Below, piece after piece: positions 1 through 52,701 of a stretch of 64,000 bases of DNA. This DNA is from Dehalococcoidia bacterium (GTDB lineage: Bacteria > Chloroflexota > Dehalococcoidia > DSTF01 > WHTK01), in assembly GCA_965219205.1 (NCBI GenBank), contig CBDCMQ010000003.1, positions 448,819-512,818 on the forward strand, in the 5' to 3' direction. The notes beneath the pieces are model-generated. The model saw nothing but the letters and a program-made list of their open reading frames with translations. It had not been told where the DNA came from and made no database searches. Position 1 is the stretch's first letter; each line of letters begins with the position of its first letter. A program made the translations under genes and the position numbers.

Positions 1-2224
1 TTGCCCTTTCAGGTCATCGAACAGGTAGACGAGCCGAGGGCCGAGAAGGACGCACGGCTCCAGGGCATGTTATTCGACCTCGACGAGCGCGGCCGACAGC
101 TCAAGGGATGGACCAACAAACTCATCTGGGGCGACAACAAGATTATCCTTTCCTCCCTGAAAAACGGACCGCTTCGCGAGGAAATCGAGCGCCAGGGTGG
201 TATCAAACTCATTTACATCTACATCGACCCTCCCTTCGATGTTGGGGCCGATTTCTCTATGGACATTGAGATTGGCGACGAAACATTCACGAAGAAGCCG
301 AACATCCTAGAAGAGATAGCCTACAGAGACACTTGGGGACAGAGATCAGACTCGTTTATCTCCATGATCTGCGAACGGCTCATTCTCATGCGCGATTTAC
401 TTGCAGAGGATGGCGCAATTTACGTCCATTGTGATTCGCGAGTAAATGCATTTCTCCGGCTGTGTTTAGATGAAGTCTTTGGGAGGGATAATCATCTTAA
501 TGACATTGTATGGAAGAGAACTAGCGCGAGAAGCGATGCAACTTTCTGGGGTCCTATCCATGACACAATCCTCTTCTTCTCAAAATCCAAAGGATACACA
601 TGGAATCGAGTTTTTCAAGAGTACGACGACAAATACCTCTCAACCAAATACTCATTCAGTGATGAACGTGGCCGCTACCGAAGGGATAACCTGACCGCCT
701 CCGGCCTTCGTTCAGGCGACTCCGTTAGACCGTGGGGTGGGTTCGATCCATCCGAAACTGGCTCGCATTGGAGCGTCAACCGCGAAGCAGTTGAATCACT
801 GGTTGGCAAAGAAGAATCATCTAGGATGACCACCCAAGAAAAGCTAGACCTCCTGTATAAGAATGACTATATCTACCTGCCAAGGAAAAATGGTGGCACA
901 GATGGAAGGCCCCAATTTAAGAAATACCTTGGCGAAGGCGTAGCAATCCAAGACGTCATAATCGATATTCCACCCGTCAATTCCCAGGCGAGTGAGCGTG
1001 TCGACTATCCTACTCAAAAGCCAGAAGCTCTGATTGAACGAATCATTAAAGCCTCCTCCAAGGAAGGTGACCTCATTGCAGACTTCTTTTGTGGATCAGG
1101 TACAACGGCCGTGGCTTGCGAGACGCTGGGCCGCAAATGGATCGCGACAGATCTAGGCAAGTTTGCCATTCACACCACCCGAAAAGCGCATGATCGGCAT
1201 TCAGCGGAAGCTCAGGACAGAGGGCAAGGACTACCGTGCATTCGAAGTCCTGAACCTCGGGAAGTACGAGCGCCAACACTATGTCGGCGTAAACCCCAAC
1301 CTCCGAGAAGCCGAGCAGCAGAAGCAGCTTGAGGAGAAGGAAACCGCATTCCTGGACTTAGTCCTTAGCGCCTACAAGGCCGAGAAAACAGACGGGTTCA
1401 AGACGTTCCAGGGCAAGAAGGCTGGCCGACTCGTTGCGGTCGGACCAGAGAATCTCCCTGTCACACGGCTCTTCGTAGAAGAAGTCATCCTTGAGTGCCG
1501 CCAAAAGCACATCACGAGTGTTGACATTCTAGGTTGCGAGTTCGAGATGGGCCTCTTCCCTAACGTCCTCGACGAGGCGCGGGCCAAAGGCATCGATATA
1601 CTGCCCAAGTACATCCCTGCAGATGTCTTCGACAAACGTGCAGTTGAGAGAAACCAGGTCGTCTTCCATGACGTGTCCTTCATCGAAGTCAAGCCACAAG
1701 TGCGAGACAACAGCGTCGCGGTCGAGCTGACGGATTTTTCGGTTTTCTACTCCCAGGACTCCATCGCCAATGCCGAAGCCACCTTGAAGGCCAAGGCTAA
1801 CCGCATTGTCGTGGAACAAGGCCAGATCGTGAAAGTAAGCAAGGACGAGGACGGTATCGTCAGCCGCGAAGTCCTGACCAAGAGTTGGACAGACTGGATC
1901 GACTACTGGGCCGTGGACTTCAATTTTGAAAACAAGCGGGAAATCATCCGCAGGCCAATTGAGGCGACAAGTCAGGTCAGATGCCGGGCTTGGAGCAACC
2001 AGAACAAGGCGCCCTACCAAGACTATGAAGAGGTTTGGACCGGCGACTACGTCTTCGAGAACGAATGGCAGTCGTTCTGGACGAAGAAAAAGCGAAAATT
2101 GGAGCTGAGCAGCGTTTTCCAGGAATGCGAGCCCGGCAGGCGCAAACTAGCAGTGAAAGTCGTCGATATCTTCGGCAATGACACCATGACCATCGTCGAA
2201 GTCAACGTCGGCGCAAGCAAGTAA
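1..2224 (+). pseudogene. mod: Type III-like beta-class DNA methyltransferase (Mod). The 5' end is probably cut by the window edge. The gene is frameshifted.
   Basis: Motif IV is IYIDPPFDVGADF. Motif I (FFCGSGTTAVACETLGRKWIATD) lies downstream of it, which is the beta order. The frame switches at the A4 run 1182-1185: ...FAIHTTRK | RMIGIQRKLRTEGKDYRAFEVLNLGKYERQ. Removing one A restores a single ORF. The stop overlaps the res start (TAATG at 2222-2226). Confidence 0.85.
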
Positions 2225-4935
2225 TGGCACTGCATCCCGACTTCCCCGAATCGCCATATGCAATCCTCAACCCTGAGATTCGCTGGTTCCCGGCGGATGA
2301 ATCCCTTCGTGACACGAGTATGGACAAACTAATGCCCCCGCTGGTGCCGGCTCTGCGCCGCAAGGTCCAAGAGTGGCGTGACAGTGGCTACATCAGAGCA
2401 ACGAAAACCAGCCGTGGCCTGCTCAATTGGTGGTTCAAGACGCCCCACCTGCTCCCTCAGCTGGATGGCGCGATGGCGGAGTTCGAGTACTACTTCGCCC
2501 AGCGCGAGGCGCTCGAAACGATTGTCTACCTCTACGCCGTGGTTGGTGTACAGGACAAATTCGACCTCATGCGCTTTGACAGCAGCGGCGCGGTTTCTGC
2601 CGGCCTATTCGACGAGACATGGCGGCGGTTCGTCATCAAAATGGCCACTGGCAGCGGCAAGACAAAGGTGCTGAGCCTCGTTCTGGCTTGGAGCTTCTAC
2701 AACAAGCTTTACGAAGGTGATTCGCAGCTCTCGCGTAATTTCCTGGTGATTGCTCCAAACATCATCGTGCTGGACCGGATCTACAAAGACTTCCAGGGTC
2801 TCCGAATCTTCTTTGAAGACCCAGTCTTACCCGACAACGGAGTCGATGGTCGCAATTGGCGTGAGGACTTCCAGTTGACGCTCCACCTTCAGGACGATGT
2901 CAAAATCACGCACTCTACCGGCAACATTTTTTGACTAACATTCACCGCGTGTACGCAAGCGACGAGGTTCCGCCATCGCCAGACGATGAAAAGTCGATGG
3001 AGTACTTCTTAGGCAAGAGGCCGACGGGTGCGACCACAGACTCAAGCGTGGACCTCGGCATGATCGTCCGTGACATCGATGAGCTGATGGTGCTCAATGA
3101 TGAGGCTCACCATATTCATGATCCGAGCATGGCTTGGTTTAAGTCCATCCAGGACATCCACAACCGGCTCCTCCACAAAGGCTCAGCGTTGTCTCTCCAA
3201 GTCGATGTCACAGCTACGCCGAAGCACGACAACGGCGCAATCTTCGTCCAAACTGTTGCCGACTACCCGCTTGTGGAGGCAATTTCGCAAAATGTCGTGA
3301 AGCATCTAGTGCTGCCCGACGCCGCTAGTCGCGCCAAGCTGACAGAACAGCACAGCGTCAAGTACACAGAAAAGTATTCCGACTACATCCACCTAGGAGT
3401 CGTCGAGTGGCGTAAGACGTATGCCGAGCACGAGAAGCTTGGCAAGAAGGCGGTCCTGTTCGTCATGACCGACGACACCCGCAACTGCGACGACGTTGCC
3501 GAGTATCTCGAAGGTACCTACCCGGACCTGAAAGATGCTGTAAAGATGCTGTAAAGATGCTGTACTGATAATCCACACGAAGAACAATGGCGAGATATCG
3601 GAAGCGAATTCAGGAAAGGCCAAGGAGGAGCTGGACACGATCCGCAAGCAGGCCAACGAGATCGACAGCATGGATAGTCCCTACAAAGCGATCATCGCGG
3701 TCATGGTCCTCAAGGAAGGCTGGGACGTGCGAAACGTCACAACGATCGTCGGCCTGCGAGCCTACTCCGCAAAGAGCAACATCCTGCCCGAGCAAACCCT
3801 TGGCCGCGGCCTGCGGTAAATGTATCCAGGCGAAATCGAGGAGTACGTGAGTGTCGTCGGCACCGCCGCGTTCATGGACTTCGTAGAGTCGATTCAGGCA
3901 GAGGGTGTCATTCTTGAGCGCAAGCCTATGGGTGAAGGTACAGGCCCCAAGACCCCACTCGTCGTCGAGATCGACAACGTCAACGAGAAGAAGGACATTG
4001 ACGCTCTCGATATCGAGATTCCGCTTCTGACGCCGCGGGTCTATCGCGAGTACAAGAACCTCACAGAAGTAAACGTGACTTCTTTGGGACACCAAAAGGT
4101 GGCCTATTTACAGTTCAGCGAAAACGAGCAACGCGAAATTGTCTTCAAAGACGTGACGACGGGAGAGATTACGCAAACCACGATTTTGGATACAGCCGGG
4201 GCTGCTGACTATCGAAGTGTCATCGGTTACTTTGCGCAGACTGTCATGAAGGACCTGCGTCTTGTGAGCGGCTACGACGTGCTTTATGGCAAGGTGAAGA
4301 CCTTCGTTCAGGATGAGCTCTTTGATCACCCGGTGGATCTGGAAAGTCCCAACACGCTTCGAAACCTTTCGGAGTTGGCCGCCACCAGGACGCTCATCGA
4401 CACCCTCAAGAAAGCGATAAACGACCTAACGATCTCAGATAAGGGCGACGCCGAAATCCGAGACACGATTAAGCTCCGTCAGACGCGGCCGTTCGTCGTA
4501 AAAGAACAGGCATATATCGTCCCCAAAAAGAGCGTGTTCAGCAGGATCATCGGCGATAGTCACTTCGAGCTGCTCTTTGCGCGCTTCCTGGAAGACTGCG
4601 ACGACGTGGTCTCGCACGCGAAGAACTTCTTGGCCGTCCACTTCCGCTTGGACTATGTCAATGCGGACGGCGACATCTCAAACTACTACCCGGATTTCTT
4701 CGTCAAGCTCTTGCCTAACCAGGTCTACATCGTCGAAACCAAAGGCCAAGAAGACCTTGACGTTCCGTTAAAGATGGACCGCCTACGGCAGTGGTGTGGA
4801 GATATCAACCAAGTCCAGACAGACGTGGCCTACGACTTCGTATATGTGGACGAAGACGGTTTCAACCAGTACAGACCGACTTCCTTCCAACAGTTAGCGG
4901 ACGGATTCAAAGAATACAAAGAACCCCGTCAGTGA
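2224..4935 (+). pseudogene. res: Type III restriction enzyme Res subunit (SF2 helicase plus C-terminal PD-ExK nuclease), disrupted at three sites
   Basis: Motifs seen: Walker A MATGSGKTKV, DEAH-like VLNDEAHHI, LKEGWDVRNV, QTLGRGLR, and the nuclease motif YYPDFF...IVETKG. Lesions: -1 at T6 2927-2932 (GNIF|LTNIHRVY), +22 nt from the 11-bp x3 repeat at 3531-3563, and an in-frame TAA at 3817-3819 (GRGLR*MYPG). Confidence 0.85.
3531..3563 (+). repeat. Perfect tandem triplication of the 11-bp unit AAAGATGCTGT inside res
   Basis: Read directly. Copies lie at 3531-3541, 3542-3552 and 3553-3563. With one copy the helicase frame continues as ...YPDLKDAVLIIHTKNNGE... Confidence 0.95.
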
Positions 4936-4975
4936 AGGCCCCCGCCTTCGGTTCCCAAAAGTAGGGAGAAACTGC

Positions 4976-6452
4976 ATGGCTTCCGAGTACTTGTCTCAAC
5001 TCAGCGCGTCAGAACGGTTCGACTTGGAAAAGACGCTTCATGCGGCTCAACCTGGCCACTGCTTCATTTGCGAAGAACCTATTGATTACGAGATCCAGAG
5101 AGCTCATTTGGACGTCGATCATGTGCAACCACTGGCGGACCAAGGGAAGGATGACACGAGCAACCTTGCCTTGGCTCACGCGAGCTGTAACCGATCGAAG
5201 CAAGCAGCCGATTTGCGCGTTGCACGAGTCATGGCCCGGTTCGACAAAATCCAACGAGCCGTTCTTGACCTCGGCAAGGATTCGCCAAACCTTGGTGACG
5301 TCCTGGGAACCCGCAAGGGGTCGCGGTTCCACCTAAAACTTACCTGCGACCGGGATCAGGTTCGTTATGGATTCCCGGACCTTGACTGCCCCGACGGCAC
5401 CCAGATTCATGAGGCAGACCTTCTAGCCGATCCGCTGAGCGGCATGAAATACTTCTTTGCATTCTTACCCATCCAGTACATCTTCCACGATGAGCGCATC
5501 AACCCCCGGCATTAGTTCCAGCCTCCGCGGACTGGTCGAGGAGTTCTTTAAGGGGCGGCCTCAACTTCACGTTTCTCTCGCCTGGGTGTCGACGTCGGGA
5601 GCTGACGAGGGCGAGGTGCAGATGTTTGACGGGCAGCACAAAGCAGCCGCACAGATACTGCTCGATGTCGGCTGGCTGCCGTTGAGGATATTTGTCGATC
5701 CGGATCTCGACGTTCTTCTTCAGGCCAACACCAATGCTGGAAGTAAGCTCCGACAGGTGGCGTTCGATAAATCGATTCTGCGTCATTTGGGCAGCGCACT
5801 GTACCTGGATCGAGCTGCACGGTATCAGGCTGAGACTACCAGGTCTGCCGACGACTTCGGCTTTTCTGAGCGAGATTTAGTCTCATTTTTCAGTGGCGAA
5901 GCCAGAGAGATGAAGAGGTACATCGTCGATAACGTCCGTGACGGCTTTACGCATGCACAAGACAATCGCTTGCGCCAATATATTGACCTGGGCGGGAGAA
6001 AGAACGAGAAGCCACTCTCCTACAGCACGATTGATAAAACGTTCTATTCCTTCTTCATCGGCGATGAAATGCTCGCTAGTCCAATCAATTACCTCCTTGA
6101 TGTTGGCGACAATCCTCGTGAATTAGAGCGAGAGCAGATCGTCACCTTAATGAATCTCACCGCCGAGACACTGTTTGAAGGTAAGTTTGACCTGGAGAAG
6201 GGTACTTATAGGATCGAGAACAGGGTTCAGGCCGGTGAGGATGTTCCCGAACTCCACCTGCGGGCGTATCGGATGGCAAAAGAAGAAAACATCTACGTAT
6301 GGCTTGGCTACGTGAAGCAAATTGTGACGACATTTTATGCCGTCCAAGGAATCCCTTTCGTCGAAACGGCACTCTTCCAACGTAGGCATCCTGATGCGCT
6401 TTGGAACAACGTGGCGAACTACTTGAAGAACCTTGGCTCGCTGCCTCTTTAG
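4976..6452 (+). pseudogene. HNH endonuclease fused to a DGQHR (DndB/ParB-like) domain protein, frameshifted
   Basis: The HNH motif is CFICEEPI...HLDVDHVQPL...NLALAHASCNRSK. The downstream part contains MFDGQHKAAAQILL. The frames join at the C5 run 5503-5507 (ERINP|GISSSLRGLVEEF if one C is removed). Beyond the TAG at 6450-6452 the same frame stays open for 47 more codons, to 6596. Confidence 0.65.
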
Positions 6453-6633
6453 CTCAATCGCGACCTCTCCTTGATGATCTTTGGCGGGAAACAAAATTAT
6501 GAGTTTTGGGGCAAGATTTTTATTACTGGACACTCGCCACAAGGCCAGCAGGTAATCACAGAACCACTCAATCTGATCAAGATGGTTCAACCTTAACTAG
6601 TCAAGGTCTGCGCCGCGAGTCAAACACGCAGCC

Positions 6634-7596
6634 CTACACCGTAAGGGCGACGCGGCCTTTGACTTGGCGGCTTTCGATGTAGGCGTGAGCGTCGGCGGCT
6701 TCGCTGAGGGGATAGGTGCGGTCGATGGTTGCTTTGAAGTTGCCCTTTTGCCAGAAGTCGAGGAGTTCCTCGGTCTCTTGGCGGTCGGGGGTGCCGCTGC
6801 CGGCGCCGATTATGGCGATGTTCTTGCCCCAGAGGTCGGGTAGCAGCACTTCGACGCTGCGGCCGCCGCCGGCGCGGCCAAAGTTGATCAGGCGGCCGTA
6901 GGAGCTGAGACACTTCAAACCCTTGAGCAGATAGTCGCCTCCCAAGCCCTCGACGACGACCGGGACGCCGGCTTTGTCTGTACGCTGCATGACTTCCTCG
7001 ACGAAGTCGTGGCTGGCGTAGTTGATCCCGTGGTCGAGACCGTACTGCTTGGCCCACTCGAGCTTGTCGTCGGCGCTGGCGGTGCCGATCACGGTGGCGC
7101 CGAGATGTTTGGCAATTTGGACGCAGGCGATGCCGGTGCCGCTGCCGACGGCGTGGATGAGCACGGTTTCGCCGGCTTGCAGCTTGGCGCAGTGGACCAG
7201 CGCTTGCCGGGCCATGGTCAGGCCGGAGACGATCGTCGCGGCTTCGGTCAAGTCAGTCTCGGCCGAGATCTTGTAGACACGGGAAGCAGGGGCGGCGACG
7301 TATTCCATATAGGTGTTTGGCAACGCGCGGCCGATGACGTGGTCGCCCGCTTTCAAGTCGGCGACATCGCCGCCAACTGCTTCGACGACGCCGGAGCATT
7401 CGTAACCGGGGATGGCTGGTAAGGTTTGACCGCCGATTAGCGGCGAGTGGCCTCCCCTGCGGCTGACCTCGCTAAAGTTGACGCCGATGGCGGCGACCTT
7501 GATCAAAACCTCATCGGCCTTCGGCTCCGGCTTGTTAACGTCGTCGTATTGCAGTACCTCGGGTGGGCCGACCTCGTGGAATCGCATCGCTTTCAT
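6634..7596 (-). CDS. MDR-family NAD(P)H quinone oxidoreductase / zinc-type alcohol dehydrogenase-like protein
   Basis: MKAMRFHEVGPPEVLQYDDV...VLIKVAAIGVNF...VLIHAVGSGTGIA is the typical Qor-like pattern. The start is placed at MKAMRF, internal to the 334-aa ORF. Confidence 0.8.
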   Translation of the reverse strand: MKAMRFHEVGPPEVLQYDDVNKPEPKADEVLIKVAAIGVNFSEVSRRGGHSPLIGGQTLPAIPGYECSGVVEAVGGDVADLKAGDHVIGRALPNTYMEYVAAPASRVYKISAETDLTEAATIVSGLTMARQALVHCAKLQAGETVLIHAVGSGTGIACVQIAKHLGATVIGTASADDKLEWAKQYGLDHGINYASHDFVEEVMQRTDKAGVPVVVEGLGGDYLLKGLKCLSSYGRLINFGRAGGGRSVEVLLPDLWGKNIAIIGAGSGTPDRQETEELLDFWQKGNFKATIDRTYPLSEAADAHAYIESRQVKGRVALTV

Positions 7597-9140: not shown

Positions 9141-10382
9141 GTGGTTGAATACGCCGCCGATGCGCCCCTGGGTGTGCTCGATGGAGTCCGAGTTATTGAC
9201 CTTTCGCGCCTGGTCGCGGGCAACACGCTGACCCAGATGCTGGGAGATTTTGGCGCCGATGTAGTCAAAGTGGAGCCGCGAGCCGGTGACACGCTGCGGG
9301 CATGGAAGGTGAAGGGTGTCGAGACCACCTGGAAAATCTATAGCCGCAACAAGCGCAGCCTGGGGTTAGAGTTTCGCCACTCGAGCACGCGGGATGTGCT
9401 CCTGCGTCTCGCGGCTGGCGCCAACGTGTTTATAGAGAGCTTCCGGCCCGACACTTTGGAGAACATGGGCCTTTCGCCGAGTGTTTTGTTTGAGGCCAAC
9501 CCAAAGCTGGTCATCGTGCGGATTTCCGGCTGGGGACAGGATGGCCCCTACCGGCAACGGCCCGGCTTTGGCACCCTGATCGAAGGAATGTCCGGGCTGG
9601 CTTCGATGAATGGCTTTCCCGATCGGGAGCCACTGCTGCCGCCCACCTACCTGGCAGACACTGTCGCGGGCTTGAGCGGCGCGGCGGCGGTGCTGCTGGC
9701 GCTAAGAGAGGTGGAAGTAAACGGCGGCCAGGGCCAGGTAATCGATCTGCCGTTGTTCGATCCTTTGTTTTCCATTTTGGGTCCCCAAGCGGCAAACTTT
9801 CGCCTGACCGGCAAGCCCAAGCAGCGCAACGGCAGCCGCTCTGCCGATACGGCGCCACGCAACGTCTATCAAACCAACGACGGCCAATTCGTTTGCGTGT
9901 CGGCCTCGACTCAAGGCATGGCGGAGCGGCTTTTGGATGCTATCGGCCGCGCGGAATTGTTCCAGGATCCGAAATTCGCCACCAGCGCCGCCCGGCTGCA
10001 AAACGTGGATGAACTGGACGAAATCATCTCCGAGTTCATCGGTTCTCGTACTTTGACGGAGAACATCTCGTTCTTCGATGCTGCCGAAGTTACCGTCGGT
10101 CCGCTCTACGACATCTCTCAGATCATCGAAGACCCGCACGTTCAGGCGCGCGGCCTGGTTGAGGACTATCCTGACGCCGACATGGAGGCCTTCCCGATGC
10201 ACGCGGTGCCGGTGCGGCTTTCGGGAACGCCCGGCAGCATCCGGAGCCCAGCCCCTACCCTTGGGCTCGACAGTCGGGACGTTCTAGTAGGCGCGGGCTT
10301 TCCCGAAGATGAGGTGGATTCCCTGATAGAGGCCGGCTGTGTCCTCGCTTCGGGCTCGGCGGAAATGGCAGAGACTGACTGA
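9141..10382 (+). CDS. CaiB/BaiF family (class III) CoA-transferase
   Basis: LDGVRVIDLSRLVAGNTLTQMLGDFGADVVKVEP is the signature N-terminus. The length is 413 aa. Confidence 0.9.
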   Translation: MVEYAADAPLGVLDGVRVIDLSRLVAGNTLTQMLGDFGADVVKVEPRAGDTLRAWKVKGVETTWKIYSRNKRSLGLEFRHSSTRDVLLRLAAGANVFIESFRPDTLENMGLSPSVLFEANPKLVIVRISGWGQDGPYRQRPGFGTLIEGMSGLASMNGFPDREPLLPPTYLADTVAGLSGAAAVLLALREVEVNGGQGQVIDLPLFDPLFSILGPQAANFRLTGKPKQRNGSRSADTAPRNVYQTNDGQFVCVSASTQGMAERLLDAIGRAELFQDPKFATSAARLQNVDELDEIISEFIGSRTLTENISFFDAAEVTVGPLYDISQIIEDPHVQARGLVEDYPDADMEAFPMHAVPVRLSGTPGSIRSPAPTLGLDSRDVLVGAGFPEDEVDSLIEAGCVLASGSAEMAETD

Positions 10383-10415
10383 AGTTAGGCAAGCTTTTCG
10401 CCCGAGGAGGTAATC

Positions 10416-11342
10416 CTGGCTCGTGAGCGCCCGCTGCCGGTTTGGCGTTCGCTGCTCTACGTTCCGATTAACGTCGAGCGCTTTGTCGAGAAAGCCCACC
10501 TGCGCGGCGCGGATTGTATCCAATTGGACCTCGAGAACAGTGTTCCCGACAGCGAGAAGGCCTACGCCCGAACGCTGGTGCAGGATGCGGCGGGCCAAGT
10601 CTCGCGCGGCGGCGGCGACGTGGTCGTGAGGATAAACCGGCCTTTGCGGATGACCATGCCGGACTTGGAGGCGGTGGTCTCAGAGCAGGTGGCCGGAATC
10701 GCGGTTGCCAAGACAGAGAATGCCGCGCACATTCAACTTCTAGATGAGGTCGTGACCGAGATCGAGGCTGAGCGCGATCTGCCTCGGGGTCACACACAGT
10801 TCATCGCCATGGTCGAGAGTCCGGAGGCGTTCTTTCAGATTGAAAAGATTGCGATGGCATCGCCGCGCATCGCCGGCATCAACATCGGCGGCGAGGATTT
10901 CAGCGCCAGTACGGGCATGGAGCCCAGGGAGGAAACGCTGCTGTACCCGAAGCAACAGGTGGTGTTCGCGGCGCGCGCCGCCGGGGTGATGCCTCTGGGG
11001 TTCATCGACACTATTGCCAAATTCGGCGATTGGGATGCGTTCCGCGCCATGGTGCAACGCTCACGCAAGTTCGGCTTTATGGGCGCCTCGTGTATCCACC
11101 CGGGTCAGGTCAAGATCGTCAATGAAGAGTATCGTCCTTGGCCGGATGAGGTTGCTTACGCTCAGAGGGTGATCGACGAGAACGAAAAAGCCGAGGCGGA
11201 GGGCCGCGGCTCATTTGCGATCGACGGCAAGATGATCGACGTGCCGGTGGTTTCGCGCGCTCAGGCGACCCTGGACCGAGACGCGAGCGTGCGCGAGCGT
11301 GAGGAGAAGCACCGCAAAGCGAGCGCCGCCAGCGGCGGTTGA
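10416..11342 (+). CDS. CitE-like / HpcH-HpaI family acyl-CoA lyase (citrate lyase beta subunit-like)
   Basis: The conserved N-terminus RSLLYVPINVERFVEKAHLRGADCIQLDLENSV lies upstream of the first TTG of the tracked ORF (10524). The only start-like codon after the in-frame TAG (10386-10388) is CTG at 10416, which sits 5 nt after GAGGAGG (10404-10410). Confidence 0.75.
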   Translation: MARERPLPVWRSLLYVPINVERFVEKAHLRGADCIQLDLENSVPDSEKAYARTLVQDAAGQVSRGGGDVVVRINRPLRMTMPDLEAVVSEQVAGIAVAKTENAAHIQLLDEVVTEIEAERDLPRGHTQFIAMVESPEAFFQIEKIAMASPRIAGINIGGEDFSASTGMEPREETLLYPKQQVVFAARAAGVMPLGFIDTIAKFGDWDAFRAMVQRSRKFGFMGASCIHPGQVKIVNEEYRPWPDEVAYAQRVIDENEKAEAEGRGSFAIDGKMIDVPVVSRAQATLDRDASVREREEKHRKASAASGG

Positions 11343-13735: not shown

Positions 13736-14977
13736 CTAGACTTCGTCGACCCGCGTGGCGCCGGACTCGCTGAGCTTGCCGATCTCCTCCCAGCTGTAGC
13801 CGATCTCGAGCAAGAGCTCCTCGTTGTGCACACCGAGGACCGGACCGGCGCCGGTTATGCGCGGCGGCGTCTCGCTCATATGCAGCGGCGGCCCCGGGAC
13901 GCGCATCGTGCCCAGGGTCTCCGACTCGATCTCCTGGAGGTAGCCGTTGGCCCAATACTGCGGGTGCTCTGACATGCCGGCATAGTCCAGAACCGGCGCG
14001 TGCGGTATGCCGTGACTTTCTAAAGGCTGCACCCACTCATCGCGCGGACGGCTGAGGAAAATTGCCGCCAGCTCCTCGACCAGGGCGTCCTTGTTCTTGG
14101 CGCGCCCGAAGGGCTCCGCAAAACGCTCGTCGGCGGCCACTTGCGGCGATTCGAGCGCCTTGCAGAGGTCGAGCCAGAACTTTTGTGAATTGGCGGCGAT
14201 CGCCATGTGCTTGCCGTCTTGGCACTCGTAATTCGTGTAGGTGGCGGCGCGCCGGGTTTGGAAGCCGCTCTGCTCACCGGTTCGCAAGAACCCGACGATC
14301 TGTTTGGACTGCATCGCGACCATGGCGCCGATTAGCGAGCCATCGATCAGCTGGCCGATGCCGTCTCGCTGACGGACGTAGAGGGCGCTGGCCACGCCGT
14401 ATGCCAGCAGCATCGCGCCGATCTGGTCGGCGAAACCACCAATTAGGGCATGCGGCTCGCCGCCGGGCCCGGTCCCCTGCTCGTACATCACGCCGCTCAG
14501 AGCTTGTGCGACGTGGTCGTAGCCACCACGCTCGGCCCAGGGTCCTTTGGGGCCCCAGGCGGAGGCGGAGGCGTAGATGATATCGGGCCGAATCTGCTTG
14601 AGATCCTCGTAGCCGATGCCGATATCATGCATGACACCGGGACGGAAGTTTTCGACCACCACGTCGACAGTCGGCGTCAGGCGGTGGACGATCTCCACCG
14701 CCTCCGGCTTGCGCATGTCCAAAGTCAGGCTCTTCTTGCCGCGGTTGTGGCCTTCAAAGTAGGAGGAAAAACCGTCCGGTTTTAGCCCGTTGGAGCGGCC
14801 CGACTCACCACCAGGCGGCTCCACTTTGATCACCTCGGCGCCCATGTCGGCCAGGAGCAGGGTCGCGAACGGCCCCTGCTGATGGCGCGTGAAGTCCAGA
14901 ACCCGCACGCCTTCGAACGCCGCGGGCTTCGCCGCCTGCGGCGCGGCGGCCCCCTCCGTCTGCTTTGGCTGTGTCAT
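13736..14977 (-). CDS. CaiB/BaiF family CoA-transferase
   Basis: FEGVRVLDFTRHQQGPFATLLLADMGAEVIKVEPP. The start is placed at MTQPKQ (ATG 14977), which is preceded by GGGAG. Confidence 0.85.
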   Translation of the reverse strand: MTQPKQTEGAAAPQAAKPAAFEGVRVLDFTRHQQGPFATLLLADMGAEVIKVEPPGGESGRSNGLKPDGFSSYFEGHNRGKKSLTLDMRKPEAVEIVHRLTPTVDVVVENFRPGVMHDIGIGYEDLKQIRPDIIYASASAWGPKGPWAERGGYDHVAQALSGVMYEQGTGPGGEPHALIGGFADQIGAMLLAYGVASALYVRQRDGIGQLIDGSLIGAMVAMQSKQIVGFLRTGEQSGFQTRRAATYTNYECQDGKHMAIAANSQKFWLDLCKALESPQVAADERFAEPFGRAKNKDALVEELAAIFLSRPRDEWVQPLESHGIPHAPVLDYAGMSEHPQYWANGYLQEIESETLGTMRVPGPPLHMSETPPRITGAGPVLGVHNEELLLEIGYSWEEIGKLSESGATRVDEV

Positions 14978-15246
14978 TTCAAGCTCCCAGTCGACTTCAG
15001 CGAAGAATTCCGCTATAGGATACGCCAATGACGGAAATCGCGGAGTTTTGTACCGTTTGCCATTTCGCGACAATCGGCTACGAAAATGCGCTAACCAGGC
15101 CGCCTCTCCGAGTATCTGCTAAAGGGACTGCGGCGGCCGAAAGCTGCCATGTCTAACTCGCGGTGACGGTACAATCCCCTTCGGCGGTGCCTTTCAGGCA
15201 GACACAAGGGTTGAGTCTCGCAAGAAAAACTGAACGGGGTCAGAAA

Positions 15247-18602: not shown

Positions 18603-19100
18603 AGCAGCGGTGCGTTGGCAGATTCTCCGTCGTAGGCTTCGGCCGTCCTTTCGCCGCTGCCCTCAATGAAAATCACCAGCGAGTTGCCCGTGGCCCAGCT
18701 TGGGCGGTTGACGATCTCCTGCACGATGACCGAAAGGTCCGGTGTAACCCGTTTTTCGTTGACCAGCAACCAAGACGCAAGGTTGTTCCAAGCGACAGAG
18801 GCGGACGTCATAGGCCGGGATGAGATGTTGTCGCGCTGGCGCACGAAGGTGGCAGGGTTGTCTGAAGCCTGTCCGCGGAAGATGACGGAAGTGCTTTCGG
18901 AGTTTGTTACGTCCACCTCGAATTCAATGTAGGCCTCGATGATGACAGAACCTTGGGGTATATCCAGGTTGTTGAAACGTAACCCGACTAGCTGGAGCCT
19001 GCCGTTGTCGGCGCCAAGTTCCATGTCGGTGCTGGTTAGATTGACTGAACCCCTGCGTAGTCGCTGCTCGGCGTCATCGGACGACGCGGAAACCCGACTG
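18603..19100. repeat. Intragenic direct repeat, copy 2 (encodes the C-terminal module)
   Basis: It aligns with 20251-20748 at an offset of 1648 bp. The first 101 nt are identical, and overall identity is roughly 90% by eye. Confidence 0.9.
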
Positions 19101-20250
19101 ACTGCAGTGACCGGCGCCAGCACGGTTGGCGTTGGTGTCGAAGTTGCCGTGAGGGGCAGCGTGGGCGTGGCAGTCGGAGACGAAGTTGCCGTGAGGGGGT
19201 AGCGTGGCTGTTGCAGTCGGCGTGGCGGTTGCCGTGGGAGGCGTGGCCGTATTGGGTGCTGTGGGGCTTGCGACGGGAGTTGGGGTTCCGGTGGTGCAAT
19301 AACCGGGGACCGAATACGTGTCGATCAAGCTGCCGGCGGCATTGAAGAATTGGTAAGTGATGTCAGATGCGCTAGCCGTGACCAGCATTGCGCCCTGATC
19401 GGCGTTGTAGCGAACCATTGAGGTCGCTTCCGCGGGTAGGTTGCCAGGGTCGCCAGAGCTATACAAGTTCTCGCCACCTGCCCCGTTTACGAAGAAAGGC
19501 ATTCCGTTTACGTCCAGGCGTTCGTAGACATGGTCGTGGCCGCCCATGACCACCTCGGCGCCCCAGGTCTGGAAAGGCCACTGCATCCTCGTCGTTGAAC
19601 CGTGGTCGGAGGAGGAATAAGGAGCGTGGTGGAAAAAAACCACGTCGTAACAGGCGATCGATGTTGCTAACTCGCTCTGCAACCAGTTGGCCTGTACCGA
19701 CCCGACGCCGGTGCCATCCGGCTCATTTATGTCGCTATCAATTGCGAAAATGTGGACTAAACCGAAATCGACATCGTAGTAGCGCTCGTTTCCGGGCAGC
19801 GTGAAGTAGTCAAAGTAGGCGCCGCTACAGCTACCGGCGACGCAGGTCATCGAGTTCCAATCGTGGTTACCCAAGCTAGGCCAAAAGCGGTTTGAGGGGC
19901 TGCCCGCTCCGTAGCTCCCCTGATAATCGCCAATGTACTGCTGGTAGTACTGGCCGATGTTAACGTCGATCGTGCTCGCGTCTCCGTTGGGGTAATTGTT
20001 GTCCCCTAAGGTGATTACAAAGTCGGGATTCCAGCTGGCAACAAGGTCCGCCACACGGCCTTCGTTGACGCTGTCCCCGCCGTAGTCACCGATCACGGCG
20101 AACCTGAAGGAACCACTCGGCAGCGGCGTGCCAGTCGGCAGGGTCGTAGCGGTGGCGGGCGGCGTGGCAGTTGGGAAGGCGGTCGCCGTGGCCGTCCCGG
20201 GAGGCGTGGCCGTGACGGTGCCGGCCCCGGTCGACCCGTGGCTGACGACC

Positions 20251-20748
20251 AGCAGCGGTGCGTTGGCAGATTCTCCGTCGTAGGCTTCGGCCGTCCTTTC
20301 GCCGCTGCCCTCAATGAAAATCACCAGCGAGTTGCCCGTGGCCCAGCTTGGCCGGTTGACGATCTCTTGCACGATGATCGAGAGGTCCGGTGTAACCCGT
20401 TTCTCGTTGACCAGCAACCAAGACGCAAGGTTGTTCCAAGCGACAGAGGCGGACCTCATAGGCCGGGATGAGATGTTGTTAGCCGCGCCGATGAAGGTGG
20501 TGGGGTTGTCTGAAGCCTGCCCTCGGAAGATCACAGAAGTGCTTTCGGAATTTGTTACGTCCACCTCGAATTCAATGTAGGCGTCGGTGATGACGGCGCC
20601 CTGCGGTATGTCCAAGTTGTTGAAACGCAAGCCGACTAGCTGGAGCCTGCCGTTGTCGGCGCCAAGCTCCATGTCGGTGCTGGATAGATTGACTGAACCG
20701 CTGCTTAGCTGCTGCTCGGCGGCGTCGGACGAGACGGAGACCCGACTG
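20251..20748. repeat. Intragenic direct repeat, copy 1 (encodes the N-terminal module)
   Basis: See copy 2. The antisense ORFs 18666-18932 and 20314-20580 translate almost identically, which confirms nucleotide-level identity. Confidence 0.9.
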
Positions 20749-20972
20749 GCAACCGTGGCCGACTCAGCTTTCAACGCCGGCACGGTGGAAGCCAGGAGCG
20801 TGACCAGCCCCACCGCCATGGTTAACGTAATTAACAGTCTTTTTCTTATGTCTCGCGCGTTAGCTCTTGGGCTCATGAGTCACTCAGATCCGCGAGGTCT
20901 AGTGCAGCGCATTATCCACCAGAATTCGATTTAGGGGAAAGTCTTTGTACTCGTCCAGTAGATGCAGGACAC

Positions 20973-22730: not shown

Positions 22731-25079
22731 ATGTCTGAGTTTGCGAATTCACCGCGACCGGTTGAGCCATCCGCGACTCAGTCAGAGGCGCCCGATCTGC
22801 TCGATGACCGCGGTTTTGCCCGCGAACTCTCTGAGCTAGAAGCCAGTCCACGGGTCCGGCTGGAAACGATTGCCCGCAGCCACGAGGGCCGGCCGGTCAA
22901 GCTGATCATCATCGGCACGCCGGAGGCGCTGGCCGAGATGGAGCTGCACTCTCGGGTCACCGCGGAGCCCGAACTGCTGACTTCCGGCGCCCGTCTGCCG
23001 GTTTTGTTTACCGGCGACTCCTGGGGTCACGAGGCCTCTCAGGTTGAAGGACTGCTCAAGGCAGCGCGTACCCTGGCCTTCGACGAAAGCAACGAAGTCG
23101 ACCAGGCCCTGTCAAAAACGGTGGCTCTTTTTATCCCCTTGATAAATCCGGATGGCCGCGCGGCCGCCCTGCGGGAATGGCGGCAAACTCCGCTTTCGAA
23201 TGGTGACATGGGCGCCGGCAATGCCTTTGGTTTCTACCTCAACCGCGATTTCATCCACGGCACCCAGCCGGAGGCCCGCGGCGTTATCGAAACGGTGATG
23301 CGATGGCGCCCTGTCGCGGTCGTCGACTTGCACGAGGATATGTTCAATCTCGGTACAAGGTTAGAAGAGGTCTGTTTTGTGGAGCCCTTCGCTCAAGGTT
23401 TTGACGTCGAGGAGCATCCCATGACCCGGGCGGCGATAGTTGACCTGGGCAAAGCAATTGCCGGGCGCTGGCGTCAGCACGGATTCAAGACTGCGTTCGA
23501 CGAGGAGGGCGATAACAGCTTCGCCCCGATGCCCGAACCGGGCAAGGGTCTGAATCCGGTAGCGAGCTCTGCCGGACGGCTGCCACTTCTGGCGACATTG
23601 CATGGAATCCCCGGCTTTATCACCGAAAGCGCCCGCACACCGGGCTCTCAGAGCTGGCAGGACCGGGTTGAACAAAAGTCTGACGCGGCGATGGCCACTC
23701 TCGTAGAAGTCTCAGCGCAGCCGGAAAATTTCCTCAACGCCGTCTACAATCGCCGGCTGGCGGAGATTGCTGAGGCCAGCGATCGATTTGTTGTAATCCC
23801 GGAAAAAGATCAGCCACACGATGGCCTGGTTTCACTGCTCGACCTTTTGGAGCTTCACGGAGTCGAGGTGCATCGTGTGGCTTCACCAAGCCCCGCATTT
23901 ATTGTTCGACTGGCGCAACCTGAGTCACGCATCGCCCAGCACTTGCTGTTGGGTGAGCAGTCAAAACTCAATGAGGCGCCGCCGGCCCTTGGCGTGCGGG
24001 TCCTCTCCTCCGACTCGCTTTCGGAGAGCGACCGCCAATCCTTTAGCGAGGCGCCCGTGGAGCCGCCGGTCTTAACACCGGCGGAGTTGCCGATGGCTAC
24101 AGAGGATCAGAATGCCTACGTTACTTCTATCACGGTGGGTTCGACGGCCCTGGTGAATCAACTTCTTACCGCCGGCATGGCCCGTGTGAGCGTCCAGAAG
24201 GGGCGGTTTCACTTCTCTGGAGGCGGTCCGGCAATTCGTTGGGCGGCCGCACGTCTCGGGGTTCCGCTCGAAGTCGCGCCGCCGGCCTCTGAATCGGGGG
24301 AAGGTGGGGAAGCCGCGCTTCGGCTGCCTCGTGTCGCCCTCTATGCCGGTCAGGGTATTCCGCATTACGAATCGGCCGAAATCGCCTGGGCGCTGGAGCA
24401 AGGCGGCTTCCCTGACCGAAGGTTTGAGGCAACTGACTTCGCACGGGCTGATTGTCTGGCTGATGTCGATGTTCTGGTCGTTCCCAACGGCTCAGCGGCT
24501 GAGATCGTCGATGGCTGGAACCCGCAGGCTCCAAATCGCAGGGCACCCTGGGAGATGCACCGGCCGTCAGAGGGCGTTGGCCAGCCAGGGCTCGAGGCGA
24601 TTCGGCGATTCGTAAAAGCTGGCGGAACCTACGTCGGAATAGGTGGTGGAGGCGCCCTTCTCGCGGGTAAGGATCACCTGCGAATTGCTCAGGCGGAGAT
24701 GGTGCCGGCTGAGGTGGGCCTGGGCCAGGTCAGGCTAAAAATCGTGCGGCCGGATTCGCCTCTTGCGGTCGGCTACCGAGCCGATCAGCCGCTGCCAGCT
24801 TTCTTCACCGCGCCACCCGGTTCACCGGAAGGTGGCTACGCCTTCCGGAATGACGAAGATGCGGTTGCCAACTACGACGGCGTGCGAGCGCTCGAAGAGG
24901 AGCTTTCCTTCGTCAAAACAGAGCCGCTATCGGAGGCTGCCGGAAACGCGGCCATCGTTCACCAGACATTCGGCAATGGTCAGGTTGTGCTATTCGGAAT
25001 CGCGCCCGCGTTCCGAGCCCAGTGGCGCTCCACGTTTGGTCTTTTGTATAACGCGCTCTATCTTCGATCTGAGGCATGA
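22731..25079 (+). CDS. Large M14-family (zinc carboxypeptidase-like) protein with a C-terminal extension
   Basis: The N-terminal half shows M14-like features: SHEGRPVKLIIIG, GDSWGHEASQ, LINPDGR, YLNRDF, VVDLHED. The C-terminal part (VLVVPNGSA...GGTYVGIGGGGALL) resembles a class I amidotransferase-like fold, though this assignment is weak. Confidence 0.7.
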   Translation: MSEFANSPRPVEPSATQSEAPDLLDDRGFARELSELEASPRVRLETIARSHEGRPVKLIIIGTPEALAEMELHSRVTAEPELLTSGARLPVLFTGDSWGHEASQVEGLLKAARTLAFDESNEVDQALSKTVALFIPLINPDGRAAALREWRQTPLSNGDMGAGNAFGFYLNRDFIHGTQPEARGVIETVMRWRPVAVVDLHEDMFNLGTRLEEVCFVEPFAQGFDVEEHPMTRAAIVDLGKAIAGRWRQHGFKTAFDEEGDNSFAPMPEPGKGLNPVASSAGRLPLLATLHGIPGFITESARTPGSQSWQDRVEQKSDAAMATLVEVSAQPENFLNAVYNRRLAEIAEASDRFVVIPEKDQPHDGLVSLLDLLELHGVEVHRVASPSPAFIVRLAQPESRIAQHLLLGEQSKLNEAPPALGVRVLSSDSLSESDRQSFSEAPVEPPVLTPAELPMATEDQNAYVTSITVGSTALVNQLLTAGMARVSVQKGRFHFSGGGPAIRWAAARLGVPLEVAPPASESGEGGEAALRLPRVALYAGQGIPHYESAEIAWALEQGGFPDRRFEATDFARADCLADVDVLVVPNGSAAEIVDGWNPQAPNRRAPWEMHRPSEGVGQPGLEAIRRFVKAGGTYVGIGGGGALLAGKDHLRIAQAEMVPAEVGLGQVRLKIVRPDSPLAVGYRADQPLPAFFTAPPGSPEGGYAFRNDEDAVANYDGVRALEEELSFVKTEPLSEAAGNAAIVHQTFGNGQVVLFGIAPAFRAQWRSTFGLLYNALYLRSEA

Positions 25080-25098
25080 CGCCAGCGGAGGGACAACA

Positions 25099-25776
25099 AT
25101 GAACACACGTATCGGGCTCCTCGTGCCGTCGACCAACACCGTGGCCGAACCTGATTTTTATCGTAGTCTGCTCGCCTCGGCGACCGTCCACACCGGCCGA
25201 ATGTATCTGCGGGAGACCACGGTCGAAGCGGAAGAAGAGATGTTGGACGAGTACACGATTCCAGAAGCTAGACTCCTGGCTACGGCTGAGCCCGACTTCG
25301 TCGTTTTCTCGTGCACGACGGCTGGCGCCCTGCGTGGCAACGCCTATGATGCCGACCTGTGTTTGCGGATCACCGAGGTCACGGGTGCACCGACGATTAG
25401 CACAATAAAGTCAGTCCAGAACCAGCTGAGAAATGGACCCGGCACCAGGGTGGCGGTGCTCACGCCCTACGTTCATGAGCTAAACCAACGGATAAAGGCC
25501 AGTCTGGAGGACGATGGCCTGGAGGTAGTCTCTATGCACGGGTTGGGTCTGACACACAATCCCGACATCGCGGCGGTCTCACCGTCAGAGATCGTCGAAT
25601 TTGCCCGGCGCAGCCTCGGTGACCAGCTCGACGCCGATTCTCTGTTCGTGTCCTGCACCAACTTCCAGGCGGTCTCGGCGCTGCCGATGCTGCAGCAGAT
25701 CTACGGGCCCTCCGTCGTAACCAGCAACCAGGCGACGCTTGAAGCGCTGGAAAGCGTGCTCCGCTCCAGTAGCTAA
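25099..25776 (+). CDS. Asp/Glu/hydantoin racemase superfamily protein (maleate isomerase / arylmalonate decarboxylase-like)
   Basis: RIGLLVPSTNTVAEPDF, VVFSCTTAG and LFVSCTNF are present. The start is placed at MNTRIG (ATG 25099). Confidence 0.7.
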   Translation: MNTRIGLLVPSTNTVAEPDFYRSLLASATVHTGRMYLRETTVEAEEEMLDEYTIPEARLLATAEPDFVVFSCTTAGALRGNAYDADLCLRITEVTGAPTISTIKSVQNQLRNGPGTRVAVLTPYVHELNQRIKASLEDDGLEVVSMHGLGLTHNPDIAAVSPSEIVEFARRSLGDQLDADSLFVSCTNFQAVSALPMLQQIYGPSVVTSNQATLEALESVLRSSS

Positions 25777-25791
25777 AATGGGCCGCACCAC

Positions 25792-33695: not shown

Positions 33696-33807
33696 CCGGT
33701 CGAACTCCTAACTTGCACTTTTGGCTCTGCTGGACCCTTGACCGAACATGCAGCAACGTGCGGTTATTTGCAAGAATACGCGTCCTTCAGGAGGGAGGTT
33801 GGCGGCG

Positions 33808-36278: not shown

Positions 36279-36409
36279 TACCGACGGCAGGCCTGAAACC
36301 AGGTGTTTACTGCCAAACGCACCTTCAAATGTCGACGTATAGGTGACAATGTACTGTCCGTGGCTCTATAAATGAGCTGGTGATCGAATCTCGTCGCAGG
36401 AGGCCACTC

Positions 36410-51831: not shown

Positions 51832-52701
51832 ATGACGACAAATATCGACTTCACCGAGGCCAGCACGAGCAAGTTTGCCGATAGCAAGCCTTGGCGCATG
51901 CACTACAACGAGGCTGGCGAGGGTCATCCGATTATCTTTATTCACGGTGGCGGCCCCGGTGCGACGGGTTGGAGCAACTTTAGCCAGAACATGCGCTACC
52001 TCGCCCCGAATTACCGCTGCCTGGCAGTCGATATGCCGGGCTGGGGCGAGTCTGACCCGACACCGCCTGGCACGGCGAACGGTCCGCTGGCTCTCAAGGG
52101 TTTCCTGGATGCGCTTGGCATCGAGAAGGCAGCCTTCGTCGGCAACTCGATGGGCGGCGCCGCGACCCTGGGATTTGCCGTCGAATACCCGGAGCGCATC
52201 TCTCACATCATCGTGATGGGCTCCGCTCCGGTCGGCGGCGTATATACGATGCAGGCCGCCGGCGGAATGAACGAGGGTATGAAGGTACTGGTTGAGACAT
52301 ACGAAAATCCGACGCCGGAGAACTTCGGCCGGCTGATTCGGGTTATGGTCTACGACTCCGCCTTTGCCACGCCTGAACTTCTGGAGGAACGCTCTCGGTC
52401 GGTGCTATCGCGGCCGGAGCATATTCAGAACTCGGCCGAGAATCGCCGCCGTTTAGCAGCGGGTGGCCCGCCGGCACCCACGGGTCCGACCGTGCTCCAG
52501 CGCCTGACCCAGCTCGACCACCCTGCCTTGGTCATTCAGGGCAGGGATGACCGGGCAACGCCGATGGAGGCGAGTCTACAAATCTGCACAGCCCTGAAGA
52601 ACTCGCGCATGCTGATCTTCAATCGCTGTGGCCATTGGGCGCAGCTGGAGCACGCCGACGAGTTCGCCAGGCAGGTGCAGATGTTCTTGGAGAACAACTA
52701 A
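51832..52701 (+). CDS. Alpha/beta hydrolase, meta-cleavage product (C-C bond) hydrolase-like (BphD/TodF type)
   Basis: IIFIHGGGPGATGWSNF, VGNSMGG and CGHWAQLEH are present. Confidence 0.8.
   Translation: MTTNIDFTEASTSKFADSKPWRMHYNEAGEGHPIIFIHGGGPGATGWSNFSQNMRYLAPNYRCLAVDMPGWGESDPTPPGTANGPLALKGFLDALGIEKAAFVGNSMGGAATLGFAVEYPERISHIIVMGSAPVGGVYTMQAAGGMNEGMKVLVETYENPTPENFGRLIRVMVYDSAFATPELLEERSRSVLSRPEHIQNSAENRRRLAAGGPPAPTGPTVLQRLTQLDHPALVIQGRDDRATPMEASLQICTALKNSRMLIFNRCGHWAQLEHADEFARQVQMFLENN

Follow-up and report, generated by a model that had tools for sequence, protein, structure and literature searches.

A recently inactivated HNH nuclease gene with a predicted ParB/sulfiredoxin-fold module in a decaying defence island of a Dehalococcoidia bacterium

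Introduction

GmrSD, BrxU and SspE each join, in one chain, a nucleotide-binding module of the ParB/sulfiredoxin (Srx) fold, a helical domain and a His-Me (HNH) nuclease, and are located in defence islands and beside restriction-modification (R-M) or bacteriophage exclusion (BREX) genes (PMC4619093; PMC12065111; PMC12839542). GmrSD pairs a ParB/Srx-fold domain bearing a DGQQR motif with an HNH domain, and the related DGQHR domain carries a nearly invariant DGQHR pentapeptide (PMC4619093). Modules of the DUF262 family are described as NTPase sensors that switch on the nuclease joined to them, and in DndB, GmrSD and SspE the ParB domain is followed by a helical one (PMC12065111). Nucleases combining ParB and HNH domains have been proposed as backup or compensating restriction factors in BREX loci (PMC12839542), and the ParB-CTPase fold binds diverse nucleoside triphosphates (NTPs), its fusions to PF01844 HNH domains being noted as novel and uncharacterised (PMC12704722). 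DndB, another member of this superfamily, is reported to be a regulator (PMC12704722; PMC10853773), and Makarova et al. (2013) reported ParB-like genes of COG1479 within a Type I locus of Campylobacter and suggested a cell-death system linked to DNA modification (PMC3632139). Here we compare with these systems a gene at positions 4976 to 6596 of a 64,000-nucleotide stretch of DNA from a Dehalococcoidia bacterium (assembly GCA_965219205.1, contig CBDCMQ010000003.1, positions 448,819 to 512,818), which we call the window. An earlier note, made from the sequence alone, had taken it for the third gene of a Type III R-M operon, encoding an HNH nuclease fused to a DndB/ParB-like domain. On balance we favour, with moderate confidence, the reading that it is a copy, inactivated not long ago, of a restriction-like nuclease that consists of one chain, stands alone and is probably gated by NTP. 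The domain order in the family to which it belongs is an HNH domain of the Cas9/McrA type, a short beta linker, a ParB/Srx fold with an invariant DGQHK loop and a helical domain of about 275 residues.

Results

The gene at 4976-6596 and its two breaks

The gene opens with an open reading frame (ORF) of 179 residues (4976..5515, plus strand), whose ATG is preceded by a GGGAGA-type ribosome-binding site and lies, as the earlier note had it, 40 nt past the stop codon of the res gene (4933-4935) on the same strand. From about position 5508 the coding sequence runs on in the +1 frame, which contains the motif FDGQHK, to a TAG at 6450-6452; past this stop the frame stays open for 47 further codons and ends at a TAA (6594-6596). 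Read through its break, the gene yields a protein of 491 residues up to the TAG (P0002, made for searching with the whole protein), in agreement with the length of about 490 residues proposed before, the ancestral protein having instead had about 540. Over 4976-6596 the gene aligns colinearly, from residue 1 to residue 540, with intact relatives of 534-543 residues, and the 47 codons beyond the TAG match the conserved C-terminus of the family (FGGKQNY..W). The suspicion that the protein had once been longer is thus borne out, the TAG being a nonsense mutation. The closest relative among the matches listed, P0003, is intact, 540 residues long and 72% identical, and a search of the source genome itself recovers the gene as two pieces plus one TAG.

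The first break does lie at the C5 run (5503-5507) where the earlier note had placed it; its nature is different. In a DNA alignment with four intact relatives (from loci L003, L001, L049 and L002), two nucleotides are missing inside the codon of Arg178, right after the C5 run (5503..5509, at about 5508, plus strand), and the lesion is therefore a 2-nt deletion and not an extra C. Arg178 is invariant in all 116 aligned relatives. The second break (6450..6452, plus strand) replaces the invariant Trp493 by a TAG (TGG>TAG), the codon being TGG in all three relatives aligned here. Among the 116 aligned sequences 82 columns are invariant, including the HNH-motif residues and FDGQHK, and the window copy departs from them at only three (R178, G181, where it has Ser, and W493), from which we conclude that inactivation was recent; it differs at seven of the 109 near-invariant columns. 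By these alignments, 4976..6596 (plus strand) is one protein gene, ancestrally of about 540 residues, that has been broken twice.

The HNH domain

The HNH finger is recognised by the motif CxxC, DH, N and HxxCN, made up of zinc-finger Cys/His and catalytic residues. In the window copy the HNH (beta-beta-alpha-metal) nuclease domain occupies residues 1-95 (4976..5260, plus strand), with a Pfam PF01844 match over residues 29-76 (E 1.6e-10) that scores 41.4 bits where the gathering cut-off is 21.4. All 116 aligned relatives have C29, C32, D48, H49, N63, H68, C71 and N72, and the window copy keeps every one of them. The model of P0003 described below aligns by VIA-align with the HNH domain of Cas9 (7mpz_A; Z 8.3, root-mean-square deviation (rmsd) 3.3, 79 residues aligned, model residues 12-94). 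The only matches in PADLOC-DB v2.0.0 were to the HNH regions of Cas9 and PtuB (residues 16-89, E 6e-6 or weaker), and a sequence-profile search of the PDB likewise matched the HNH region only. The canonical N-terminal HNH finger of the earlier note is confirmed by the Pfam match, the invariant residues and the resemblance to Cas9.

The C-terminal module

An AlphaFold2 model of P0003, built from 116 aligned relatives (mean predicted local distance difference test score, pLDDT, 90.8 over the whole protein), divides the chain into the HNH domain (1-95), a small beta region (about 100-148), an alpha/beta domain with the DGQHK motif (about 149-260) and a helical domain (265-540). Transferred to the window, all on the plus strand, the alpha/beta domain, assigned to the ParB/Srx fold from models of P0003 with VIA-align and Foldseek, covers 5420..5753 and is cut by the frameshift; DGQHK itself (family residues 219-223) lies at 5628..5642, F218 to K223 being invariant in 116 of 116 relatives; and the helical C-terminal domain, delimited by model secondary structure (about 275 residues, family residues about 265-540), covers 5766..6593 and is interrupted by the TAG.

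Compared with about 48,000 solved chains, the whole P0003 model matched the ParB-like protein PadC (Z 9.4) and, as noted, the HNH domain of Cas9. A second model, of residues 149-540 of P0003 alone (pLDDT 85.6), again had PadC as its best VIA-align match (6ryk_B; Z 11.9, rmsd 2.3, 100 residues aligned), followed by two sulfiredoxins (Z 9.9 and 9.3), the N-terminal ParB domain of pNOB8 (Z 9.0), KorB (Z 8.8), the serine kinase SerK (Z 7.9), SbnI (Z 7.1) and Atu1540 (Z 6.8); these eight ParB/Srx-fold chains span Z 6.8-11.9, and the next row stands at 4.9 or below. With Foldseek the best match of the module model was 5k5d_B (E 7.4e-4), and the whole 540-residue model had no match at E<=0.001. The helical domain had no solved match above Z 4.7, which does not make its fold new. 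The C-terminal module is thus predicted to have the ParB/Srx fold, on the strength of its modelled fold (Z 11.9 to PadC) and of a local profile match to DndB given below. The structure prediction called for earlier did recover this fold, and of the DndB/ParB-like domain with a DGQH(K) motif that the earlier note proposed, the fold and the motif stand; the corresponding match to a DndB/DGQHR or ParB-like hidden Markov model (HMM) does not, since the HMM search of the C-terminal part found neither, an outcome that the note had itself named as speaking against its assignment. A profile of the module, run against 1.84 billion representative sequences, collected 555 clusters at E<=0.001 and 125 at E<=1e-30, many of them fragments; from so few we would expect a compact family, set apart from DndB and DUF262, although the hits carry no family names and were not scanned.

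A tight family in bacteria and archaea

The homolog search found 2,344 proteins at E<=0.001 among 8,000 candidates scored. Among the 120 matches listed, all but four (320, 476, 490 and 526 residues) are 534-559 residues long, and about a dozen are named 'HNH endonuclease', the others being called 'hypothetical protein' or carrying no name. Of 394 stretches matched in bacterial and archaeal species genomes, 374 code for a relative, and cultured strains with a copy include Variovorax sp. Root411, Stenotrophomonas panacihumi JCM 16536 and Pedobacter sp. B4-66. Judged by sequence, the intact relatives form a tight and strongly conserved family present in both bacteria and archaea. Some proteins of about 326-386 residues (P0131, P0180, P0188, P0245 and rows 2-3 of an ESM Atlas search, the latter at a template modelling (TM) score of 0.82) have the ParB-fold and helical module without the HNH domain, and may be stand-alone forms or gene fragments.

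Among 18 genomes of the window's genus, matches to the full family occur in two only (G000 and G313); neither copy is intact, and the two are not orthologs. The G313 copy was considered as an ortholog and rejected, having only about 66% nucleotide identity over 350 nt. It lies at 9238-10853 of locus L120 (G313:C1:2818000-2833000), frameshifted into pieces of 372 and 197 residues, with a phage-type integrase about 4 kb upstream (3973-5106, minus strand) and a Type III mod homolog that begins about 3 kb downstream (13901-15001).

Relation to GmrSD, DndB and the ParB CTPases

Set against GmrSD, BrxU and SspE, the family shares the single-chain combination of ParB/Srx-fold module, helical domain and HNH nuclease, the DGQxx phosphate-loop motif (DGQQR in theirs, DGQHK here) and the occurrence near R-M genes. 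The order is reversed, however: the HNH domain comes first here, whereas in the known enzymes the ParB domain is N-terminal to the nuclease; the HNH domain is of the PF01844 Cas9/McrA type and theirs is DUF1524; and Pfam searches at E<=10 gave no match to DUF262 (PF03235) or DUF1524. Given the lack of these matches and the reversed order, we do not count the family as a member of GmrSD. Neighbours from the ParB_N and GmrSD_N clusters came up at 0.93 in an ESM Atlas feature search and are leads only. By analogy, the family would resemble GmrSD, BrxU and SspE in its way of working while being assembled in the opposite domain order from different sub-families.

DndB shares with the family a ParB-superfamily domain followed by a helical domain, and a similar overall size. 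Predicted models of PF14072 clusters in the ESM Atlas align over about 285-290 residues (TM 0.55-0.58 by query; a lead only), an hhalign comparison, in which no more than 36 columns around DGQH align, gives a probability of 80.7% (E 1.3e-5), and fusions of DndB to a nuclease (NERD) exist among Atlas clusters. On the other side, the family has no HMM match to PF14072 or TIGR03187, a profile of 15 DndB proteins gives it at most 11 bits in a cross-HMM comparison, it carries an HNH domain, and an invariant Lys stands where DndB has its signature Arg. DndB/DGQHR membership is ruled out by sequence on these grounds (no HMM match, at most 11 bits, DGQHK and not DGQHR). PF14072 itself occurs in 25 of 301 genomes searched (300 of the phylum plus the source genome) and was not found in the source genome. 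In the phosphate-loop comparison the invariant DGQHK aligns with DGQHR, its last residue being Lys and not the Arg of GxxR, GCHR and DGQxR loops; its counterparts are DGQHR in DndB, DGQQR in GmrS and GCHR in sulfiredoxin. With the ParB-CTPase proteins (ParB, Noc, KorB, PadC) and sulfiredoxin the likeness extends over the whole core of about 100 residues covered by the solved matches; unlike the ParB CTPases, the family lacks a helix-turn-helix, a parS-binding domain and a partition context, and is fused to a nuclease. Because membership in both DndB and GmrSD fails, we file the family under the ParB/Srx fold.

Genomic neighbourhoods of the relatives

Eighty loci were fetched from species genomes, of which 79 are distinct (L024 duplicates L023). 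Neighbouring genes were called greedily and clustered by sequence, and a Pfam scan covered 141 of the 149 genes directly adjoining (-1 and +1); the remaining eight were both neighbours of L024, the second piece of the L049 gene, the +1 genes of L068 and L071, both neighbours of L075 and the -1 gene of L078, the last five of which are cluster mates of scanned proteins. A further 133 neighbours at -2 and +2 were listed, outside the Pfam scan. Sequence clustering alone brought out no dominant partner, the largest cluster having 12 members in 11 loci, and the R-M theme was seen only because Pfam annotation was added. A DNA methyltransferase or restriction subunit stands at -1 or +1 in 15 of the 79 distinct loci (17 if L075 and L078 are counted by cluster), and of the 34 members of R-M neighbour clusters 31 are no more than two genes away from the family gene, as against 47% of all neighbours examined. 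With X for the family gene, the order is mod-X-res in L031 and L006, hsdR-X-hsdM in L059, L065, L068 and L071, methyltransferase-X-methyltransferase in L022 and L076, and mod-res-X, as in the window, in L017; the gaps between X and the subunit genes are 2-13 nt, or the genes overlap (L031, L059 and L017, for example). Large Eco57I-like methylases with helicases or kinases, resembling BREX or DISARM (defence island system associated with restriction-modification) loci, flank the gene in L041, L043, L073, L075 and L078. Members of dnd-type families were absent from the Pfam matches of the 141 immediate neighbours. Family relatives thus stand alone in varied contexts, yet recur tightly packed beside or inside Type I, IIG and III R-M operons.

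On a quick IQ-TREE maximum-likelihood tree of 79 rows (L024 and L049 left out), the window copy falls in a Chloroflexota clade with L003, L001 and L002 (support 97). Type III genes lie near the family gene in five of the 79 loci (L002, L006, L017, L031 and L045), a distribution that needs at least three changes on the tree, and beyond a short helicase segment the res type of the window had no match beside the family in the other 80 loci. The homologs are accordingly not obligate partners of Type III systems, the survey of synteny going against the earlier proposal. In a deep sub-clade (support 100), seven of nine rows (L052, L063, L064, L066, L070, L079 and L080) have a protein of about 112-206 residues downstream; the five of these that were scanned carry an Mrr_N winged-helix domain at the C-terminus, the other two being assigned by clustering, and the sub-clade may be a two-gene variant. 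The tight mod-X-res loci of a bacterial metagenome-assembled genome (L031:1736-7942) and of one from a Methanocellaceae archaeon (L006:818-5126) have near-identical X genes (branches 0.034 and 0.052), which suggests a recent inter-domain transfer or mis-binning.

The broken mod and res genes and the low-GC island

The two genes upstream are the mod and res genes of a Type III system, res being of the BPTD_3080 family, and both are pseudogenes. The mod gene, an N6/N4 DNA methyltransferase (1..2224, plus strand; Pfam and PADLOC), starts at about window position -2 to 1, the start of the ORF being visible in locus L122. Its frame-1 product (1-1329) has a complete N6_N4 methyltransferase core (Pfam N6_N4_Mtase, E 9.4e-41) and matches the PADLOC model MTase_III PDLC03633 (E 4.4e-75), the best stretch covering profile positions 44-243; an ORF in another frame (1163-2221) matches positions 350-534 of the same model (E 9.1e-22). 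The change of frame falls at an A4 run (1183..1186, plus strand), where one A fewer would join the two frames. The res gene, a restriction helicase-nuclease (2224..4935, plus strand), is in four pieces, of which 2224-2931, 2931-3551 and 3820-4932 match NCBIfam NF046055 at positions 68-206, 329-412 and 651-953 of 970, the first also matching Pfam ResIII. Its lesions, all on the plus strand, are a T6 run at which frame 1 passes to frame 3 (2928..2933), an 11-nt unit present three times in tandem (3528..3560), the two extra copies of which (22 nt) cause a second frameshift, and an in-frame TAA (3817..3819). There is thus at least one lesion in mod and there are three in res.

GC content is 0.50-0.55 from the start of mod to about 6600 (1-6600), against 0.60-0.65 on both flanks, which hold hydantoinase and peptidase genes upstream and a quinone oxidoreductase gene downstream. 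The other 47 ORFs of the window are metabolic and show no visible splits (coding density 91%), and many that match an NCBIfam model do so over its whole length. Since only mod, res and the HNH-ParB gene are split, the damage is confined to an imported three-gene cassette of about 7 kb. The three genes arrived together on this one low-GC island, and with mod and res themselves broken no intact R-M operon is left here. Of the earlier idea of a third gene in a Type III operon, the island shared with mod and res stands; a dedicated subunit does not, all three genes being pseudogenes. A search of the island ends for flanking repeats or a target duplication gave one weak pair of 14-nt direct repeats upstream and nothing at the right end; a promoter and terminator scan of the island stayed at shuffle level, and no tRNA was found in the 10 kb upstream.

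Lesions in independent sequencing runs

Logan contigs of four sequencing runs from three studies (X1, X3, X4 and X7, the last from a different study than X1-X4 and from a slightly diverged strain) were aligned to window positions 1-6700; no RNA run appeared among the runs listed for this sequence. The A4 run of mod is spanned gap-free by contigs of three runs (X1 record 5, X3 record 9, X4 record 18), and two other X1 contigs of higher depth have 1 nt less at 1183. The T6 run of res is spanned gap-free in all four (X1 record 6, X3 record 15, X4 record 22, X7 record 27). One X4 contig (record 24, 3467-5176) has 22 nt fewer at 3531, which would join res frame 3 to frame 1, and position 3817 is A in X1 and X7, giving a sense codon and no stop, and T in X4. 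A contig of X7 (record 32, 6202-6599) differs from the window at four positions, none of them at 6450-6452, so that the TAG is present in X7. Some lesions are thus common to the strains and others polymorphic, which fits real, ongoing decay and not assembly error. The copy number of the 11-nt tandem unit at 3528-3560 differs between environmental strains (the X4 contig having one copy), and because the T6 frameshift upstream is common to all four runs this variation looks like slippage in a dead gene and not like phase variation.

Other features of the window

Four paralogous ORFs of 430-478 residues (29623-30912, 33748-35067, 36380-37813 and 62445-63866) resemble a methylsterol-monooxygenase model in part only, the match being N-terminal (E 1e-14 to 1e-18). 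Around them lie genes of the aromatic-degradation type, for a dioxygenase alpha subunit (50497-51804) and a BphD-like hydrolase (51832-52698), and caprolactamase/hydantoinase pairs (43907-47649), and the region looks like a catabolic gene neighbourhood. For two further long ORFs, 19077-20876 (600 residues) and 22731-25076 (782 residues), NCBIfam gave nothing at E<=1e-10, and a gap of 712 nt (25080-25791) contains no ORF of 100 residues or more.

Discussion

Our analysis points to the gene at 4976-6596 as a broken member of a family of single-chain nucleases in which a ParB/Srx-fold module follows an HNH domain. In the source genome decay extends over the entire island, and the gene is without function. 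In intact copies, by analogy, the ParB-fold module would bind and hydrolyse NTP and would sense the state of DNA, this sensing would gate cleavage of invading DNA by the HNH domain, and the nuclease would act as a self-contained layer of defence that complements R-M systems. We infer this NTP-gated mechanism because of what has been published on GmrSD, BrxU and SspE and on the ParB-CTPase switches.

Several observations weigh against this interpretation. NTP binding, DNA sensing and a role in defence are drawn from analogy only, and our literature search found no experiment on any family member or on this architecture. At the level of sequence, no Pfam (E<=10), NCBIfam (E<=1) or PADLOC (E<=1) model covers the C-terminal 360 residues (residues 179-491 were scanned), and the family motif ends in Lys where DndB, GmrS, Srx and ParB have Arg. 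The solved structure of BrxU (7p9k_A) aligns poorly with the family (Z 3.3, rmsd 11.5, 227 residues aligned). About 60 of the 79 loci have no R-M gene adjoining, many neighbours being housekeeping genes (tRNA synthetases, methylmalonyl-CoA mutase, a release factor, ThiC), and tblastn searches of 72,556 plasmids and 50,697 phage records came up empty, which is unusual for a mobile defence gene. Lastly, the assembly is the sole source for the frameshift at about 5508, no run contig covering 5503-5512 in a poorly covered stretch (5377-6200).

The linkage to R-M genes could also be read as dependence on them. A dedicated third component of a Type III system, working only with mod and res either as a modification-dependent second effector or as a DndB-like regulator, would account for three co-oriented window genes on one low-GC island, the third starting 40 nt after the second, for the tight operons of mod, X and res elsewhere (L031, L006, L017 and L002) and for the second broken, non-orthologous copy of the same genus lying about 3 kb from a mod homolog (G313); DndB, the nearest named ParB-type family, is moreover a reported regulator (PMC12704722; PMC10853773). 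We nevertheless hold this to be quite improbable. Type III systems have two genes, and the HNH-ParB gene is an add-on found with unrelated Type III pairs: so few loci have Type III genes nearby, and these by independent changes, the systems involved belong to different families, the gene is found in Type I and IIG contexts or alone as well, and its invariant HNH catalytic residues argue for a nuclease and not a repressor. We find no support for a new Type III system of three genes. The PrrC anticodon nuclease of the EcoprrI Type I locus offers a model of a guard of an R-M complex, and a nuclease of the family might similarly stay silent while a neighbouring R-M or BREX-like complex is intact and fire when a phage anti-restriction protein disables it. 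Such a link would fit the position of X between subunit genes, with gaps of 2-13 nt or overlaps (L031 and L006; L059, L065, L068 and L071; L022 and L076), the COG1479 genes in the Campylobacter Type I locus (PMC3632139) and the proposal that ParB-linked HNH proteins are compensating restriction factors (PMC12839542). Most copies have no R-M neighbour, however, and the hsdR-X-hsdM cases form one Bacteroidota clade and count as one event, so that a backup function of this kind seems unlikely to us. The same doubtful standing attaches to the broader proposal that the family is a new guard class embedded in Type I, IIG, III and BREX-like R-M operons, in many cases between the subunit genes, and that its ParB-type NTP switch keeps the HNH domain silent for as long as the host R-M complex works and frees it once a phage anti-restriction factor disables that complex; were it true, the decay of the whole window island would reflect the loss of a co-dependent unit.

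Two further explanations dispense with a defence function or with the decay itself. The gene could be a selfish element of the homing type, an HNH endonuclease gene that propagates through cleavage of empty sites, brings no benefit to its host and sits in R-M operons by chance. Its patchy spread over bacteria and archaea, with the bacterial L031 and the Methanocellaceae L006 carrying near-identical copies, its very varied flanks, housekeeping genes included, and its repeated decay, both full-family copies of the window's genus being broken, all go in this direction. Known free-standing homing HNH genes do not resemble a protein of 540 residues with a conserved ParB-fold and helical module, though, and the lack of any phage or plasmid match, the concentration of R-M cluster members within two genes (31 of 34) and the absence of flanking repeats or a target duplication seen at the ends of the window island make a homing element very improbable. 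The breaks might, finally, be assembly or sequencing errors, the nuclease gene and the R-M pair being intact in the organism. The source assembly comprises 9 contigs (2.98 Mb; completeness 87.8%), short homopolymers (A4, T6 and C5) contain or adjoin three of the six lesions, and 5503-5512 is spanned by no run contig. The A4 run of mod, the T6 run of res and the TAG at 6450-6452 are nonetheless reproduced gap-free and unchanged in contigs from as many as three studies, two lesions are stop codons created by substitution and one is a 22-nt tandem insertion, none of these being of the homopolymer type, two are polymorphic between runs, and the remaining 57 kb of the window have no split genes; error of this sort is hardly credible to us. 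We therefore retain the interpretation of a stand-alone, probably NTP-gated nuclease, recently inactivated in the window.

For the window itself the value of this finding is mainly descriptive: it is a datable three-gene defence island that is eroding in place, its lesions partly shared and partly polymorphic between runs. For the family it reaches further. Single-chain ParB-fold and HNH nucleases such as GmrSD, BrxU and SspE are established defence enzymes, and the same parts are found here in the opposite order, in hundreds of bacterial and archaeal species, with the larger half of the protein outside any current domain or defence-system model. The family is an inexpensive one-gene candidate for phage challenge, and would also bear on whether nucleotide switches of the ParB type gate nucleases generally.

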